DNA of 4,609 nucleotides from IMG/VR virus record IMGVR_UViG_2703718809_000009; one strand, given 5' to 3'. The stretch comes from a virus (taxonomy: Duplodnaviria; Heunggongvirae; Uroviricota; Caudoviricetes). The notes beneath the pieces were generated by a model, which was not told the DNA's origin, did not search any database, and saw only the letters and a list, made by a program, of their open reading frames with translations. Below, piece after piece: positions 1 through 4,609 of the stretch (positions are counted from its first letter, which is position 1; each line of letters opens with the position of its first letter). The position numbers and the translations under genes are program-made.

Positions 1-177
1 TGCCAGTTCGTCAAGCTGGCTGTCTCCCAGCCATACAGGCGGGACGTTATCACCAGCAAGTCGCCCGTCCTGTTCCTGCCACTGTTTCGCGTGCGCCCAG
101 GCATCACTACCCGCAAAGATGATTACCTCTGTCATTTTGTCGTGCGGCTGTTTTTTCAGATTCGGTGCCAGTTTCAT
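1..177 (-). CDS. Hypothetical protein, N-terminal 59 codons only (continues beyond window start); possibly the start of a larger replication-type gene
   Basis: ATG at 177..175 overlaps the TGA stop (176..174) of the upstream gene in an ATGA arrangement. The frame stays open to position 1 (MKLAPNLKKQPHDKMTEVIIFAGSDAW...). Not in the ORF track because it is truncated by the window edge. Function is unknown; the replication-gene suggestion is only by analogy with P4-like layouts. Confidence 0.5.
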   Translation of the reverse strand, partial: MKLAPNLKKQPHDKMTEVIIFAGSDAWAHAKQWQEQDGRLAGDNVPPVWLGDSQLDELA

Positions 178-473
178 TTTTTGCCCCTGAATGCGTTAAT
201 CATGCTTTTCATTTTCTGAATATTTGCCCGTGCCTTTGCGTTGCTGGTGGGCTGTTTGCGTGGTGTGGACTGTATCAGTGAAAAATCACGCCGGAACTGA
301 TAAACAGGCATCACACAGTCATAGCCGTACCCATCACGGCGGTAAGTAACGCACCGTCCCGCCACGCTTTTAATCGTTACCGTGCCGCCGTAGTTATCCC
401 GGAAAATATCGCCGGGGCGGATTTCAGGCCGAGCGGGGCCGCTGGCAGTAAAGCCAGAATTTTTCTTTTTCAT
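174..473 (-). CDS. Small phage protein, DUF4222-like (99 aa)
   Basis: ATG at 473..471 with GGAG 9 nt upstream. The translation contains PGDIFRDNYGGTVTIKSVAGRCVTYRRDGYGYDCVMPVYQFRRDF, which fits my recollection of the DUF4222 small-domain pattern (PG..RD..G..VT....R.GY..C...F). Stop overlaps the next start. Confidence 0.6.
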   Translation of the reverse strand: MKKKNSGFTASGPARPEIRPGDIFRDNYGGTVTIKSVAGRCVTYRRDGYGYDCVMPVYQFRRDFSLIQSTPRKQPTSNAKARANIQKMKSMINAFRGKK

Positions 474-479
474 GTTTTT

Positions 480-698
480 TTACTCCAGAGGCCGCTTTTT
501 AGCGAAGAGTTCAATATCAGATGTCAGAGAAACCTGTGTATTTGCCAGGTCTAACAACAAAGAAATAAGAATTTCCTCTCTGCTATCTGATTTATCGGTG
601 CTAAGGCTGTTCATCCACATATTGACGACTTCCCTGATTTTTTTCGCAGAGTGCAGGGCTTCAAATGCCAGGTCTTCAATATCATGTTTATTTCGCAT
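480..698 (-). CDS. Hypothetical small protein (72 aa)
   Basis: ATG at 698..696 (MRNKHDIEDLAFEALH...), with a G-rich stretch upstream. The ORF-track version (480..764) starts further upstream, but the 698 ATG sits 11 nt from the stop of the preceding gene (688..690), consistent with translational coupling. No family recognised. Confidence 0.5.
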   Translation of the reverse strand: MRNKHDIEDLAFEALHSAKKIREVVNMWMNSLSTDKSDSREEILISLLLDLANTQVSLTSDIELFAKKRPLE

Positions 699-900
699 AA
701 TCGCCCCCGCGTAACTGGTCTGCACTAACACCCGATTTAGTGAGCATTTCAGAAAATCCCGCAAGAGTGCTGATAAATTCGTTTTCCATTAAACGGCACT
801 GGCATTTAACCCGGCCTTTTTCCAGATACACCAGTACGCGCCCCGTATAATCTGACGGCACATTCAGCACTACAGATAAGTGCGCTTCATTATTATTCAT
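688..900 (-). CDS. Hypothetical small protein (70 aa)
   Basis: ATG at 900..898 preceded by a strong SD (GGAGGTGG, reverse complement of 903-910). ATGAATAA overlap with the stop of the upstream gene. No family recognised. Confidence 0.55.
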   Translation of the reverse strand: MNNNEAHLSVVLNVPSDYTGRVLVYLEKGRVKCQCRLMENEFISTLAGFSEMLTKSGVSADQLRGGDYAK

Positions 901-1129
901 GGCTCACCACCTCCATATCAGCCATGATAATTTTGCTGGCCTCATTCAGTGCCATATCAGCACTAAGTTGCATTACAGCCAGTGAATGAGGAACGAAAGC
1001 CCCGGCATATTCTGTTTCACTGGTAGCGTGCTTATGCGCCCTGTCCGCGATAACAGAAATATCAATCAGTGCATCAATCAGTGTTTTGATTGCTTCGGCG
1101 GCTGCGTCCGGACGGGTGTTATTGCACAT
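893..1129 (-). CDS. Hypothetical small protein (78 aa)
   Basis: ATG at 1129..1127 preceded by AGGGGG. Overlaps the stop of the Icd-like gene (1119..1121) by 11 nt. No family recognised. Confidence 0.55.
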   Translation of the reverse strand: MCNNTRPDAAAEAIKTLIDALIDISVIADRAHKHATSETEYAGAFVPHSLAVMQLSADMALNEASKIIMADMEVVSHE

Positions 1130-1487
1130 GGTGCACCCCCTGACGAATACGGGCGGCGAATATCATCACGCAGCCAGTTGGGGATTGTTGGCGGGCTTCC
1201 TGTTCGCTGGCGGCCTCGATGTGTATTACGCGTGGTTGTGCGGTGCTCAGGGCGATAAAACGCCAGATGAAATTGTTTTCGCATTTCTGAATAAACAGCG
1301 TGTTTTCTTCACGCCCTTTCCAGAAAGCCGCAGTATAGCCCATCTCCTTAACCATCTTGCGGGCATCAACCAGCGTGTCAGCGGCAACATGTACCGTAGT
1401 TGCTCCATCTGCCATGCGGTCGTGGTGTAGTGCCACAAAGGTGTATATAAATTTAGGGTGAGTTTGGGTATGCTGTGTTCCAGCCAT
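1119..1487 (-). CDS. Icd-like (host cell division inhibitor family) phage protein, 122 aa; first gene of the leftward operon
   Basis: ATG at 1487..1485 with SD GAGGT (reverse complement of 1495-1499) at ideal spacing. Translation MAGTQHTQTHPKFIYTFVALHHDR... resembles the Icd-like small proteins of P4-type elements as I recall them. The ORF-track entry 1119..2036 is an implausible upstream extension that runs through the operator repeats and antisense to the RHH gene. Confidence 0.55.
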   Translation of the reverse strand: MAGTQHTQTHPKFIYTFVALHHDRMADGATTVHVAADTLVDARKMVKEMGYTAAFWKGREENTLFIQKCENNFIWRFIALSTAQPRVIHIEAASEQEARQQSPTGCVMIFAARIRQGVHHVQ

Positions 1488-1518
1488 AATCGTTACCTCG
1501 TTTAACGGTTTGGTTAGA

Positions 1519-1560
1519 AGCCCGGTTAGTGTTCGCGCACTGCCGGGTTTCGTCGTTTTT
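1519..1560 (+). terminator. Terminator-like GC-rich hairpin plus T-tract on the + strand, lying inside the leader of the minus-strand operon
   Basis: cccggttagtg (1521-1531) pairs with cactgccggg (1538-1547): about 10 bp with one bulge, loop ttcgcg, followed by tttcgtcgttttt (1548-1560). There is no + strand gene upstream to terminate, so its role is uncertain. Confidence 0.35.
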
Positions 1561-1573
1561 ATGAATCGATCAT

Positions 1574-1676
1574 TGTGAGATACATAGCGACCATAATGTG
1601 AGATATACATTATATTGTGGTGATATACATTGCAAGTGTTTTTATATCTCACTTTTGTGTATAGTGATATACACAT
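1574..1676. promoter_or_regulatory. Divergent promoter/operator region with an array of GTGA(G)ATATACAT-like repeats
   Basis: Direct copies at 1575-1586 (gtgagatacata), 1598-1610 (gtgagatatacat), 1620-1630 (gtgatatacat) and 1664-1676 (gtgatatacacat); inverted half-site tatatctcac at 1643-1652. Start-to-start spacing 23, 22 and 44 bp. A perfect TATAAT on the minus strand (1614..1609) overlaps the second repeat, and a palindromic TTGCAA sits at 1630-1635. Confidence 0.5.
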
Positions 1677-1695
1677 AACAAATTGGTGATTAACT

Positions 1696-1998
1696 ATGTC
1701 TGTATACAAAAATGCAAAATCGCAAATGACAACGATCAGGGTTCCCCACGATGTTATGGAGGGCATGGAATCCGTAAAACTGGACGGCGAAAGCAACGCC
1801 GGATTCATAGTAACCGCCATGCGCGGTGAGATCGCCCGCCGCCAGGCAGAAGGAAGCGGAGAAAATCCCCTCGTGTCTTCACTGGATGCCTTAGCTAAGG
1901 TCGAACAAATCGGCATCAAGGCAGCGGAGGAAATCGGGCAACTCGTAGCCGTCGCTCGTGAAGAACTCCAGCGGCGTAAAGCCAAAGAATCTGAATAA
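1696..1998 (+). CDS. Ribbon-helix-helix (CopG/Arc-like) putative transcriptional regulator, 100 aa
   Basis: ATG at 1696 with GGTGA 6 nt upstream. The N-terminal segment TTIRVPHDVMEGMESVKLDGESNAGFIVTAMRGEIARRQ fits a beta-strand / helix / G-x-S-N turn / helix layout, followed by a charged C-terminal tail. Divergent from the Icd-like operon across the repeat array. An alternative start at the ATG at 1726 is possible. Confidence 0.65.
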   Translation: MSVYKNAKSQMTTIRVPHDVMEGMESVKLDGESNAGFIVTAMRGEIARRQAEGSGENPLVSSLDALAKVEQIGIKAAEEIGQLVAVAREELQRRKAKESE

Positions 1999-2007
1999 TT
2001 AGTATCA

Positions 2008-2034
2008 GCGCCGTGATGTGAGTAACTACGGCGC
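2008..2034 (+). other. Weak hairpin downstream of the RHH gene (7-bp stem gcgccgt/acggcgc, 13-nt loop)
   Basis: Inverted repeat 2008-2014 / 2028-2034, 10 nt after the TAA stop at 1996-1998. No clear U-tract follows, so terminator function is uncertain. Confidence 0.2.
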
Positions 2035-2348
2035 ATTGCTATGTAAATACTGGCAATAAACAGAAAAGGTAGTTCTACTCCGAATAATTTTATCTGACAC
2101 TACTCCTGAACTAACATGCGCTTATCTTACAGGATATAAATATAAATCCATAAAATCACGATTAAATAAAGTCGCTCCAAACATAAACCACACCCAACGC
2201 TTAACAAGATAGCAACAAACAGGTAAATAACTTGCAGAAATATTTATCGCAAGGATTATCATTATTAATGACAAATCACTTTACCAAGTCATTCCCCTCT
2301 CTTATCATAAAGAGAAAGTAATAAATAAGTTAAGGGAGTTAGAATGCT

Positions 2349-2885
2349 ATGAATCTAAAAAAAATAGCCACAAACACAAAAAACAAGATAACAGAAACAT
2401 TTAATAAACTTATATTAGAGGCATCTAAAACCCCCACACAAGATGAAATTAAAATACTTGAGAGAAGGAGCAAGAAGTTTAATTACTCCTTTTTCTCATA
2501 CGCAGTCACAGGAGCTATAATAGTTTTTTGCTCTCAACCATTAATTAAATACGCAAACCCAATACTTATTTTATTGAGTGGTCTGTTACTGTCTATCATC
2601 ATTATCATTCTCAGAATGATTTATATTTCACAAGCGAATGCATCATGGACAACCAAAAAACGCTCACATGTACTAGTTCATTTTCTTTCTGCATGTTTCA
2701 TAGCATCAACATTGACGTTGCTATATCAGGCTTACGATAATAACATCACACACAAATTGTACTGTAAAAATATACAACAACTTATTGAAAAAAGGATAGA
2801 AACAGAAAAAAACATCAGCATATTCAGTGGGATGCAATGCACCCCGGTATATGATTACTCTTTATTTGGATTTAATCTCTTATAA
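2349..2885 (+). CDS. Predicted small integral membrane protein (178 aa, about 3 TM segments) in AT-rich cargo; function unknown
   Basis: ATG at 2349 with SD AAGGGAG (2331-2337). Hydrophobic segments FFSYAVTGAIIVFCSQPLI, ILILLSGLLLSIIIIILRMIYI and HVLVHFLSACFIASTLTLLY are flanked by charged soluble N- and C-terminal regions. Codon usage is strongly A/T-biased and the local GC is far below the flanks (about 27% in a 60-nt sample I counted). No family recognised. Confidence 0.75.
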   Translation: MNLKKIATNTKNKITETFNKLILEASKTPTQDEIKILERRSKKFNYSFFSYAVTGAIIVFCSQPLIKYANPILILLSGLLLSIIIIILRMIYISQANASWTTKKRSHVLVHFLSACFIASTLTLLYQAYDNNITHKLYCKNIQQLIEKRIETEKNISIFSGMQCTPVYDYSLFGFNLL

Positions 2886-2893
2886 AGAATGTT

Positions 2894-2947
2894 ATTACTG
2901 ATTTGAGTACAAATTCTCAAATCAGTAATTCATAATATTTTATTCTG
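2894..2947. terminator. Probable bidirectional intrinsic terminator between the convergent cargo gene and alpA
   Basis: Perfect 14-bp inverted repeat attactgatttgag (2894-2907) / ctcaaatcagtaat (2916-2929) with 8-nt loop tacaaatt, followed on + by tcataatattttattctg and on - by a moderately U-rich run. The stem is AT-rich (4 GC pairs of 14). Confidence 0.5.
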
Positions 2948-2954
2948 AGATAAT

Positions 2955-3182
2955 TTAAACTACCCACTCACCTCGAATCCATGCCTGCACTTCTGAAAGA
3001 CGATATGCAACAGCAGTGGAACCAATCTTGATCCGCTTAGGAAATTTTCCTTCCTTCTCCAGCTTCCAGCGTGTGCTGTTCGCAAGAGTGGTTAGCTCCC
3101 GACATTCTTTCTCACGGATCATTCGGTCAATGTTAGGAATGTACTCCAGACCCTTTTTATCAACAATTGCCATTTTTTTCAT
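2955..3182 (-). CDS. alpA: AlpA-family phage regulatory protein (excisionase-like HTH DNA-binding protein), 75 aa
   Basis: ATG at 3182..3180, 1 nt after the int stop (TAA 3186..3184). Translation ...RELTTLANSTRWKLEKEGKFPKRIKIGSTAVAYRLSEVQAWI matches the characteristic AlpA/Vis-type helix-turn-helix pattern. The ORF-track start at 3191 is a TTG in the sequence, not ATG. Confidence 0.85.
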   Translation of the reverse strand: MKKMAIVDKKGLEYIPNIDRMIREKECRELTTLANSTRWKLEKEGKFPKRIKIGSTAVAYRLSEVQAWIRGEWVV

Positions 3183-3183
3183 G

Positions 3184-4419
3184 TTAACCAACCTTTTGTT
3201 TGAGGATTGTCACTTTTGAATCAGCACCTGCGATGCTATTGAGATATGTAGTCCAGAGTTCCAGAGCATCCAGTTTTTTAGCCATAAACTTACTCCGGTT
3301 GTAAACACCTGCCACGCCAGGTAGCGCATGGCCTAACAGTTGTTCTACTACATAAAATTCAACACCGAGATCACTTAGATGAGTAGATAGCGTTCTTCTA
3401 AGGTCGTGTAGTGACCATTGTTTTTCATGGCCCAAACGTTTACCGATTTTCCCCCCAATCTTGCTTACGCTTTCTCTAATTCGCAGACTTCCCAGCACAT
3501 AACCAGTATGTTTTGTCTCTTCGTGAACATCCGTTACCCACTGTCGTAGAATTTCAGGTACTGGTCTGACGATTTCAACACCAGTTTTTGAGTGATCTTT
3601 TGGTACAGTCCAAACCCAACTTTCGAGATCCCATTCGCTCCATTCTGATAATCGGGCTTCACTCATTCGACATCCAAATACTGTACAAAGCACAAACATT
3701 TTTCGCGTGTATTCAGACATTAGTTTTAAATCAGGCTCGACAAAAATTGCCTTCCAGAGCTGGCCGAGTTCGGCTTCATCCAGAACCCGATCCCGCTTAC
3801 CTGCAATCTGCCCCACATCACTCATGCGCAAATCCTTTAAAGCATCACACGTCGCGTACTGGCGTACCCGACAAAAACGAAGAGCTAATTTAGTGTCAGA
3901 AAAAACATACGCCGCCATAACTGGTGCATTACGTTTAATTCGGTCAAAACAGTCCAGCCATTCATATAGGTGAGTGTCATTTACGGGCAAATGACCGATA
4001 TAGGGAAAGATATGCTTTCGAAATCTGCCAAGCGTTACAGCATGAGTTTTACGACGCACCTTACAGTAATTTTCATACCAGTAATTTAGTGCATCCTCCA
4101 CTGTAACCGGCTTTAAGCGTTCTTCAGCCTGAATCTTAATCTGGATACGCGGATCACGTTTGTCAGCCAACCAACCACGGCACTCGTCGCGCTTTTCCCT
4201 TGCCTGTTTGAGTGACATATCAGGATATTTACCCAACGTTAGCCAGACCGGAGCAGCCCGGCCACCTGCTAACCTGTAGAAGAAAACAAAGCTCACAGCC
4301 CCTTTAGTACTCACACGAATAGAAAGCCCCTTTCCATCAGCAATGGTGATCTGCTTTTCTCTGGGTTTCCCCAGATATCCTTTAAGCGCTTTGTCGCTCA
4401 GTTTGTTCTCGCCAGCCAT
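3184..4419 (-). CDS. int: P4-type tyrosine integrase (site-specific recombinase, phage integrase family), 411 aa
   Basis: Start at ATG 4419..4417 (MAGENKLSDKALKGYLGKPREKQITIADGKGLSIRV...) preceded by GGGG; the ORF-track start at 4470 is a GTG extension. The N-terminus has the P4-int arm-binding domain pattern (...GKYPDMSLKQAREKRDE...). The C-terminus carries catalytic-domain motifs HDLRRT, LGH and the tyrosine in GVYNRS. Confidence 0.9.
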   Translation of the reverse strand: MAGENKLSDKALKGYLGKPREKQITIADGKGLSIRVSTKGAVSFVFFYRLAGGRAAPVWLTLGKYPDMSLKQAREKRDECRGWLADKRDPRIQIKIQAEERLKPVTVEDALNYWYENYCKVRRKTHAVTLGRFRKHIFPYIGHLPVNDTHLYEWLDCFDRIKRNAPVMAAYVFSDTKLALRFCRVRQYATCDALKDLRMSDVGQIAGKRDRVLDEAELGQLWKAIFVEPDLKLMSEYTRKMFVLCTVFGCRMSEARLSEWSEWDLESWVWTVPKDHSKTGVEIVRPVPEILRQWVTDVHEETKHTGYVLGSLRIRESVSKIGGKIGKRLGHEKQWSLHDLRRTLSTHLSDLGVEFYVVEQLLGHALPGVAGVYNRSKFMAKKLDALELWTTYLNSIAGADSKVTILKQKVG

Positions 4420-4434
4420 TTTTAGCCCCAAAAA

Positions 4435-4471
4435 GCAATACAAGCTGCAATACAGAGATGATTGCAACACA
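4435..4471. promoter_or_regulatory. Three direct GCAAYACA repeats immediately upstream of the int start codon (candidate regulator or arm-type binding sites in the int promoter region)
   Basis: gcaataca at 4435-4442 and 4447-4454, gcaacaca at 4464-4471; spacing 12 and 17 bp; 16-52 bp upstream of the int ATG. A palindromic ttgcaa lies at 4462-4467. Confidence 0.3.
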
Positions 4472-4609
4472 CAGATAACGAGGAAAATTCAGTGAAAGCA
4501 CCAGATAAACTTATTCTTTATTATCAAAATATTAAGTGTAAAAACCAGCAACTACACGAAAGCCTCAGAAAGCCATGCTAAGTGCTTCGGCTTGACATAT
4601 CCCGGCGTA

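Follow-up and report, generated by a model that had tools for sequence, protein, structure and literature searches.

What keeps the replication operon of a satellite element silent while the element resides in its host, and is the protein encoded beside that operon the one that does so? The locus that raises this question lies in IMG/VR virus record IMGVR_UViG_2703718809_000009 (Duplodnaviria; Heunggongvirae; Uroviricota; Caudoviricetes), a stretch of 4,609 nucleotides that we call the window, in which a small gene of the YlcI/YnfO family at positions 1696-1998 faces a leftward operon that starts with an Icd-like gene and leads to a primase gene. An earlier note, made from the letters of the sequence, had taken the product for a ribbon-helix-helix (RHH) protein that acts as an immunity or induction switch. 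Comparison with related loci makes it fairly probable that this RHH protein binds a set of short boxes between the two genes, represses the leftward promoter (PL) and regulates its own expression.

The layout of the locus agrees with the earlier description, since the RHH gene is indeed divergent from the early, or replication, operon, with the Icd-like gene, small open reading frames (ORFs), a DUF4222 gene and the primase gene all on the minus strand (Table 1). The spacer between the RHH gene and the Icd-like gene is 208 bp long, and the adjacent repeat array proved to consist of five matches to TGAKATAYA within 1576-1673, whose starts are spaced by 23, 22, 22 and 22 bp. The chance expectation for this motif in the window is 0.13, and none of 200 shuffled sequences reached five matches. 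From conservation among the relatives we predicted two promoters, PL and a rightward promoter (PR) in front of the RHH gene. The PL pattern, TTGnnn-16/18-TAnnnT, occurs at the matching position in 61 of the 65 distinct regions of the relatives, mostly as TTGAC(G/A), while a TAnnnT hexamer occurs at the matching position of PR in all 65, in columns that are conserved between the box classes described below. With boxes B2 and B3 on PL, B4 and B5 on PR, and B1 in the early leader of the leftward transcript, the layout fits repression of PL combined with autoregulation.

To identify the protein that would read these boxes, 188 related loci were gathered from genomes, IMG/VR and metagenomes (species-representative genomes alone gave 12). 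In all informative loci a divergent operon with small ORFs, DUF4222 and a replicase faces the RHH gene at a distance of about 190-208 bp, and this arrangement is kept although the integrase, the replicase type (D5_N/DUF5906, DUF927 or AAA_25) and the cargo vary. When the regions are aligned by their distance to the ATG, the same five box columns appear in every class, with sequences that are specific to the class. The predicted DNA-reading beta-strand of the protein changes with them: QMTTIR, as in the window, goes with box TGAGATACA; QLTTVR or QLFTVR with TGAAACACA; QSLTAR with GTCTTACAC; QQLNAR with TGAATACCA; Q(M/I/L/V)KN(I/V)R with AGGTGTGTA; (K/R)QISIR with TGAATCACA; and QALAAR with a GTGTAAACA-like box.

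Among 87 non-identical combinations of N-terminal domain, operator region and left gene, the beta-strand hexamer assigns the box class with zero exceptions (adjusted Rand index, ARI, 0.94; adjusted mutual information 0.93). The C-terminal half of the same protein has an ARI of 0.04 with box class, and one C-terminal cluster spans six box classes. We rejected the boxes as sites for AlpA or for the product of the first leftward gene, whose ARI values are 0.22 (55 rows) and 0.20, respectively, against 0.94-0.97 for the RHH strand. At the level of single residues, the association with box class is high at positions 2-5 and 7 of the arm, 11-14 and 16 of the strand, and 21, with peaks at 3-4, 7, 11-14 and 16, and falls to about zero from position 43 on. 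Box TGAAACACA pairs with QLTTVR or QLFTVR in elements of E. coli, Photorhabdus, Xenorhabdus and Serratia, which differ in their first leftward genes, replicases and integrases. Because box class follows the N-terminal arm and beta-strand of the RHH protein, we take this protein as the probable reader of the boxes.

Several points weigh against this reading. The cross-tabulation of boxes is partly circular, as the motifs it uses were defined on representatives taken from these very data. Physical linkage also feeds the association, since the N-terminal codons are only 30-135 bp from the boxes; the first leftward gene, however, is about equally near to them and shows no such association. QMTTIR and QLTTVR differ conservatively while their boxes clearly differ, so residues outside the strand, in the arm, must contribute. 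A generic promoter scan called neither PL nor PR, and it missed PL because too few of the 12 consensus positions matched. Finally, it is AlpA, an activator, that has been named the master regulator of Gram-negative phage-inducible chromosomal islands (PICIs) (PMC6092414, PMC11773190).

The fold is consistent with a DNA-binding role. Two AlphaFold2 models, both of single chains, were built from 30 aligned sequences (predicted local distance difference test, pLDDT, 80) and from 46 more diverse ones (pLDDT 88.6 overall and 95-97 for residues 11-50). Both have an extended segment at residues 8-17, a helix at 18-27, a loop, a helix at 34-53, a short linker of low confidence and a long helix at 58-99, and thus contain the strand-helix-helix topology of about 45 residues by which the RHH superfamily is recognized. 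The modelling therefore supports the assignment of residues ~8-53 to an RHH domain, as the earlier note had anticipated. The best structural matches are the RHH antitoxins Rv0298, TacA, CopA-SO, MazE and ParD, followed at lower rank by PutA-RHH, AmrZ, NikR, omega, ParD, MazE and TraM; an earlier comparison gave a similar, weaker picture. Foldseek against the PDB gave no match, and searches of PDB sequences with the protein or its profile gave no RHH match.

Membership in the Arc/Mnt sequence family is not demonstrable from these comparisons. PF03869 (Arc/Mnt) had no match at E<=1 in the window protein and none among 46 family members, Arc and Mnt were not among the matches of the PDB profile search at E<=10, and RHH_1 matched only one of the 46 members (E 0.0029). 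Direct alignment with hhalign gave E values of 0.0064 for Arc and 0.12 for Mnt, with probabilities below 6% (the Mnt sequence was compared with 1mnt). In this weak register, residues 11, 13 and 15 of the window protein align with Q9, N11 and R13 of Arc, which are the residues that contact DNA bases.

Between L59 and L91 of the C-terminal helix, hydrophobic or small residues recur with 4-3 spacing, a pattern that suggests a coiled coil. Residues 58-99 are nearly invariant across six operator classes, and the helix may be an oligomerization domain, a DNA clamp or a partner-binding site. A profile of this region also matched the helix-hairpin-helix motif of Hef (E 0.008); such a motif seems doubtful here, since the two models do not reproduce it and have one continuous helix.

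The gene is real and conserved. Its product matches the YlcI/YnfO model NF041551, an N-terminal model of 42 residues, at residues 8-49 with 70.5 bits (E 8.5e-20; curated cut-off 30 bits), and RefSeq gives the same name to identical or near-identical copies. The match to phrog_6522 covers the entire protein (E 1.7e-61), and Pfam gave only a weak match to the RHH-type Rv0623-like family (E 0.019). We found 249 homologues at E<=1e-3, nearly all of about 100 amino acids and from Enterobacterales; 7151 assembly blocks index the identical protein, and the DNA of the RHH module is present in 418 of 5426 complete E. coli genomes. A tblastn search against 50,697 deposited phage genomes returned no copy. 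The relatives have a stronger Shine-Dalgarno (SD) sequence than the window gene, AGGAG or GGAGG, at the same distance to the ATG.

The family itself is small: when 1.84 billion representative proteins were searched exhaustively with a profile, it comprised 73 clusters; about a dozen of these are two-domain forms and about fifty are short forms of 52-77 amino acids with the N-terminal domain only. The short YlcI/YnfO proteins of lambdoid prophages such as DLP12 and Qin share the N-terminal domain (NF041551) with the window protein and, unlike it, are without the C-terminal helix; their genes stand at the end of the late region, whereas the window gene stands at a divergent early promoter. The helper prophage of one relative, L001, has a short ylcI gene of its own (64 amino acids, same N-domain family) at L001 20048-20242 on the plus strand, just upstream of cos, which it adjoins, and with nohD, the gene for the small terminase, in divergent orientation. 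Its product may engage in cross-talk or form heterodimers with the protein of the island. No functional study of the family came up in literature searches on YlcI/YnfO, DUF3950 and RHH proteins or repressors of PICIs, and a 2026 survey lists YlcI/YnfO solely as a "prophage-associated protein", accessory in capsid-forming PICIs (PMC13612085).

Next to the operators, on the strand opposite to the Icd-like gene, there is a structured unit that resembles a small antisense RNA. The 81 nucleotides at 1482-1562 have a minimum free energy of -33.8 kcal/mol (z -5.4). A consensus structure from 30 diverse sequences has 18 pairs, of which 9 carry compensatory changes, with many G-U pairs on the plus strand, and the plus strand is more stable than the minus strand in all 56 unique sequences (means of -34.5 and -22.8 kcal/mol). 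Upstream, TAnnnT occurs at fixed offsets in two sequence groups, comprising 25 and 15 of 40 unique sequences. Positions 1482-1554 match SymR (RF01809) on the plus strand with E 4.5e-4; the 35.3 bits of this match fall short of the gathering score, which is 61, and the equivalent place matches SymR with 37.6 bits in L015 and 31.6 bits in L013. The unit would most simply be a cis-antisense RNA that keeps the first leftward gene from being translated. It is like SymR of the symR/symE pair, a cis-antisense RNA of ~77-80 nucleotides with two hairpins and a promoter inside the target ORF, and in both cases the 5' end lies a few nucleotides into the coding sequence and covers the ATG and the SD (PMC1891008). 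It differs from SymR in that its target is Icd-like and not SymE, and in its score of 35 bits against the gathering score of 61; LexA control was not evident at the window unit.

The earlier note thus set protein against RNA immunity more sharply than the locus allows: the window has no C4, isrK or CI RNA (RF01695, RF01394 and RF03163 gave none at E<=1), but it does have a conserved antisense RNA unit beside the operators. Bona fide isrK and C4 RNAs occur in the leftward operon of two relatives with the same RHH/operator module, at L012 3436-3634 and L013 3199-3396, both on the minus strand, so protein and RNA immunity co-exist there. The int-alpA RNA (RF02996) was found above threshold in a Photorhabdus relative (L015 7326-7394, minus strand, 50 bits) and gave no match in the window at E<=1.

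From the computed gene, fold, boxes on conserved promoter hexamers, co-variation of box and protein, and structured antisense unit, we infer the following course of binding, oligomerization, repression, autoregulation and derepression. The N-terminal RHH domain with its flexible arm would read the DNA, and the long C-terminal helix would probably join dimers into higher oligomers. Dimers would bind the five 9-bp boxes, which are two helical turns apart, across the 208-bp region. Their occupancy would shut PL and with it the Icd-like/DUF4222/primase operon for replication, and occupancy of B4 and B5 would limit synthesis of the protein from PR. A constitutive antisense RNA would be a second lock: because the part of the first leftward gene to which it is complementary includes the SD and the start codon, a leaky PL transcript would be poorly translated. 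The Icd-like gene would thus be the target of the repressor at the level of transcription and of the antisense RNA at the level of translation. The protein-repressor switch of the earlier note is retained as the best reading, given the co-variation of the boxes and their position over both divergent promoters; the protein may be the induction switch itself or a maintenance repressor circumvented by transcription driven from the helper.

Release from repression probably comes from the helper. By one route, late transcription of the helper, which in the embedded state is co-directional with int and alpA (PMC10111431), would read antisense across the RHH gene into the leftward operon. By another, a helper factor, an AlpA-dependent factor or AlpA itself would act on the conserved C-terminal domain. 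A broader proposal would make this protein the missing maintenance repressor of many Gram-negative PICIs, a large subset that includes helper-embedded and capsid-forming islands, in which exchange of arm/strand and box cassettes would have produced at least seven non-cross-reacting immunity groups, the C-terminal helix would be the sensor of helper or AlpA, and the RNA would complete a double lock; we regard this larger picture as possible and hold it tentatively.

Among other explanations, a toxin-antitoxin (TA)-like pair seems unlikely to us. Here the C-terminal helix of an RHH antitoxin would bind and neutralize an Icd-like inhibitor of cell division, DNA binding would only autoregulate, and the antisense RNA would be a second, type I-like antitoxin. 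The top structural matches of the protein are RHH antitoxins, and the Rfam match that stays below threshold is to SymR, the antitoxin RNA of a type I system, yet no PADLOC or TA-family matches were obtained. The Icd-like gene is the invariable divergent neighbour of the RHH gene, but the two are not co-transcribed, and the Icd-like partners, which range from 41 to 204 amino acids, occur in shuffled combinations with the RHH protein. Conservation of the C-terminal half across six operator classes is as expected for a conserved protein partner; the boxes, however, cover the promoter of the whole replication operon and not that of the Icd-like gene alone. This reading and the repressor model are compatible and not mutually exclusive. 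The classical type II form was rejected, as there is no conserved co-transcribed partner and no PADLOC match, and the downstream cargo ORF is variable, without a family match and absent in relatives.

Slightly less likely still is a purely local regulator, which would autoregulate and control the downstream cargo slot (ORF 2349-2885) and neither the replication operon nor the life cycle. B4 and B5 do lie over the protein's own promoter, but three of the five boxes are on or downstream of the PL hexamers. The cargo ORF is downstream and co-oriented, yet a hairpin at 2008-2034 and ~350 bp of low-GC DNA stand between it and the RHH gene, and in the relatives the cargo is absent or different while the divergent operon is constant. 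In favour of this view, experiments on other Gram-negative PICIs have identified AlpA as their master regulator (PMC6092414, PMC11773190).

An activating or architectural role, in which the phased sites would recruit RNA polymerase or bend DNA for PL, or would serve ParG/omega-like centromere or origin binding, is very improbable: P22 Mnt does activate its own promoter while repressing another, but in most relatives PL combines a 17-bp spacer with a -35 close to consensus and has the boxes on its -10 and spacer, complete elements have no ParA-type ATPase, and downstream of the primase gene there is a separate GGTAGACA iteron array of the type found at a PICI ori.

The repressor model, then, concerns an element whose nature had been described in the earlier note as a P4-like backbone, a description that does not hold. 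By gene content and location, the element is a helper-embedded Gram-negative PICI seated in the capsid gene of a lambdoid prophage, of the kind described by Tommasini, Mageeney and Williams in 2023 (PMC10111431), in a paper that does not discuss the YlcI/YnfO gene. The closest complete relatives in E. coli are islands of ~12 kb that also encode a single-stranded DNA-binding protein, a lambda-type major capsid protein, a decoration protein and a second AlpA-like protein. The window is 99.7% identical to one of them, L002, over 1135-4609. The island of L001 (L001 1414-13715) splits the major capsid gene of its lambdoid prophage and has one half of it on either side, and L002-L006 are arranged likewise. 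The last 58 nucleotides of the window reach a truncated Phage_cap_E fragment (L002 12857-13132); the far junction is visible in the relatives only. The sid-delta-psu capsid-hijacking module was not found in the complete relatives L001-L007, which have Phage_cap_E and HDPD decoration genes instead. A P4-like identity is ruled out by this absence together with that of C4, isrK and CI RNAs from the window.

The set of integrase, AlpA and primase-helicase is present (Phage_integrase and Phage_AlpA in the window, a D5_N/DUF5906 primase in L002), but it does not discriminate between P4-like elements and PICIs because it is common to both. The genes int, alpA and pri are co-oriented, as in helper-embedded PICIs (PMC10111431). 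Downstream of pri, the primase gene, GGTAGACA/TGTCTACC iterons form a dense array (L001 7110-7340), which is likely to be the replication origin of the island, separate from the operator boxes. This array rules out the boxes as replication-origin iterons.

Among known systems, the logic of the locus most closely resembles P22 immI and the copy control of plasmid pMV158. In P22 immI, Mnt is an RHH tetramer with C-terminal helical oligomerization at divergent promoters, with the sar antisense RNA over a ribosome-binding site (RBS), and Mnt and Arc recognize DNA through alternate beta-strand residues and an N-terminal arm. The window protein likewise is a small RHH protein with an extra C-terminal helix, encoded divergently from its putative target operon with boxes that overlap both promoters, it would read DNA in a similar way through strand and arm, and the predicted RNA is, like sar, a short cis-antisense RNA over the RBS of a gene in the operon presumed to be repressed. 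Unlike P22, there is no significant sequence similarity, there are five boxes at 22-23 bp instead of one operator of 17-21 bp, the operon leads to a primase and not an antirepressor, and the host of the system is a satellite and not a phage. In pMV158, the RHH protein CopG (45 amino acids), whose gene shares a transcript with repB, represses the replication operon from a single pseudo-palindromic site, and antisense RNAII is aimed at the translation initiation region. The dual control of a replication operon by an RHH protein and a small antisense RNA would be the same in the window; the gene, unlike that of CopG, is divergent, has a second domain and faces an array of sites, and no relationship was detected at the sequence level.

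Stl and Rpr are helix-turn-helix proteins, in contrast to the RHH fold of the window protein. The position of the window gene and its presumed role mirror theirs, as Stl/Rpr are divergent repressors of Gram-positive PICIs (the SaPIs), which have the int side to one flank and the replication operon to the other, and are relieved by antirepressor proteins of the helper phage (PMC6092414). As in the c4-icd-ant immI of P1, an Icd-like gene heads the controlled operon. The RNAs differ, since P4 CI and P1 c4 are processed from the same strand whereas the window RNA would be cis-antisense, on the opposite strand, and a protein repressor module would be an addition relative to P4 and P1.

Gram-negative PICIs are common, and their founding paper calls a global repressor in them "unclear" and credits control to the activator AlpA (PMC6092414). 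The mechanism, in which an RHH protein represses divergent promoters alongside an antisense RNA, is a textbook one, and if true it would fill this stated gap in PICI biology, giving a handle on the silencing of these satellites and on the sensing of helper induction. It would also provide the first function for the uncharacterized YlcI/YnfO family, and the at least seven pairs of operator and recognition strand would be a natural data set on the DNA-recognition specificity of RHH proteins.

Table 1. Features of the window around the RHH gene, with their coordinates, strand and basis.
Feature	Position	Strand	Basis or remark
RHH gene (100-aa YlcI/YnfO-family protein)	1696-1998	+	ATG...TAA ORF, 100 codons
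N-terminal arm and RHH domain, ~residues 2-53	1699-1854		followed by short linker
Long C-terminal helix, residues 58-99	1867-1992
SD of RHH gene, GGTGA	1685-1689	+	read from sequence
Box B1, TGAGATACA	1576-1584	+	~+15 to +25 of leftward transcript; column occupied in other classes
Box B2, TGAGATATA	1599-1607	+	over -10 and start site of PL
Box B3, TGATATACA	1621-1629	+	spacer of PL
Box B4, TGAGATATA, inverted	1643-1651	-	spacer of PR
Box B5, TGATATACA	1665-1673	+	over -10 and start site of PR
PL, predicted	1607-1635	-	-35 TTGCAA (1635-1630), 17-nt spacer, -10 TAATGT (1612-1607), start near 1600
PR -10, predicted, TATAGT	1660-1665	+	weak -35
Hairpin 3' of RHH gene	2008-2034		directly after stop codon; 7-bp GC stem, 13-nt loop, without U-run
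Antisense small-RNA-like unit	1482-1562	+	5' end over ATG (1485-1487) and SD of Icd-like gene
Hairpin 1 of antisense unit	1482-1515
GC-rich terminator hairpin of antisense unit	1517-1551
U-rich tail of antisense unit	1552-1562
Antisense-RNA -10, predicted, TATGCT	1469-1474	+	inside Icd-like coding sequence
Icd-like gene, 122 aa, first of leftward operon	1119-1487	-	NF033153, E 2.7e-21; RefSeq annotation in L001
Rest of leftward operon	1-1129	-	annotation of L001/L002 with window ORFs and family matches
Small ORFs	893-1129, 688-900, (480-764)	-
DUF4222 gene	174-473	-
Primase gene, start part	1-135	-
Cargo ORF, 178 aa	2349-2885	+	low GC (30-34%)
Terminator-like hairpin directly after alpA	2894-2929	-	perfect 14-bp inverted repeat, T-rich tail
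alpA	2955-3182/3191	-	Phage_AlpA match
Tyrosine integrase gene	3184-4419/4470	-	Phage_integrase match

In all relatives (L008-L188 for this comparison) the leftward operon is headed by an Icd-like gene, whose product has 41-204 amino acids and an FxWRFxA motif. The window protein has this type of motif twice; the two copies, PKFIYTFVAL and NNFIWRFIAL, point to an internal duplication. Across the relatives, the Icd-like genes are shuffled relative to the specificity class of the RHH protein. On the right-hand side, a terminator-like hairpin follows alpA, so that without antitermination the leftward operon would probably need PL for its expression; this hairpin is possibly bidirectional, and the one directly behind the RHH gene is a possible weak terminator. 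The cargo ORF has no Pfam, NCBIfam, PHROG or PADLOC family, and its product looks membrane-embedded. In the relatives, other genes (Bro-N, AntA or small ORFs) or none at all stand between alpA and the RHH gene.

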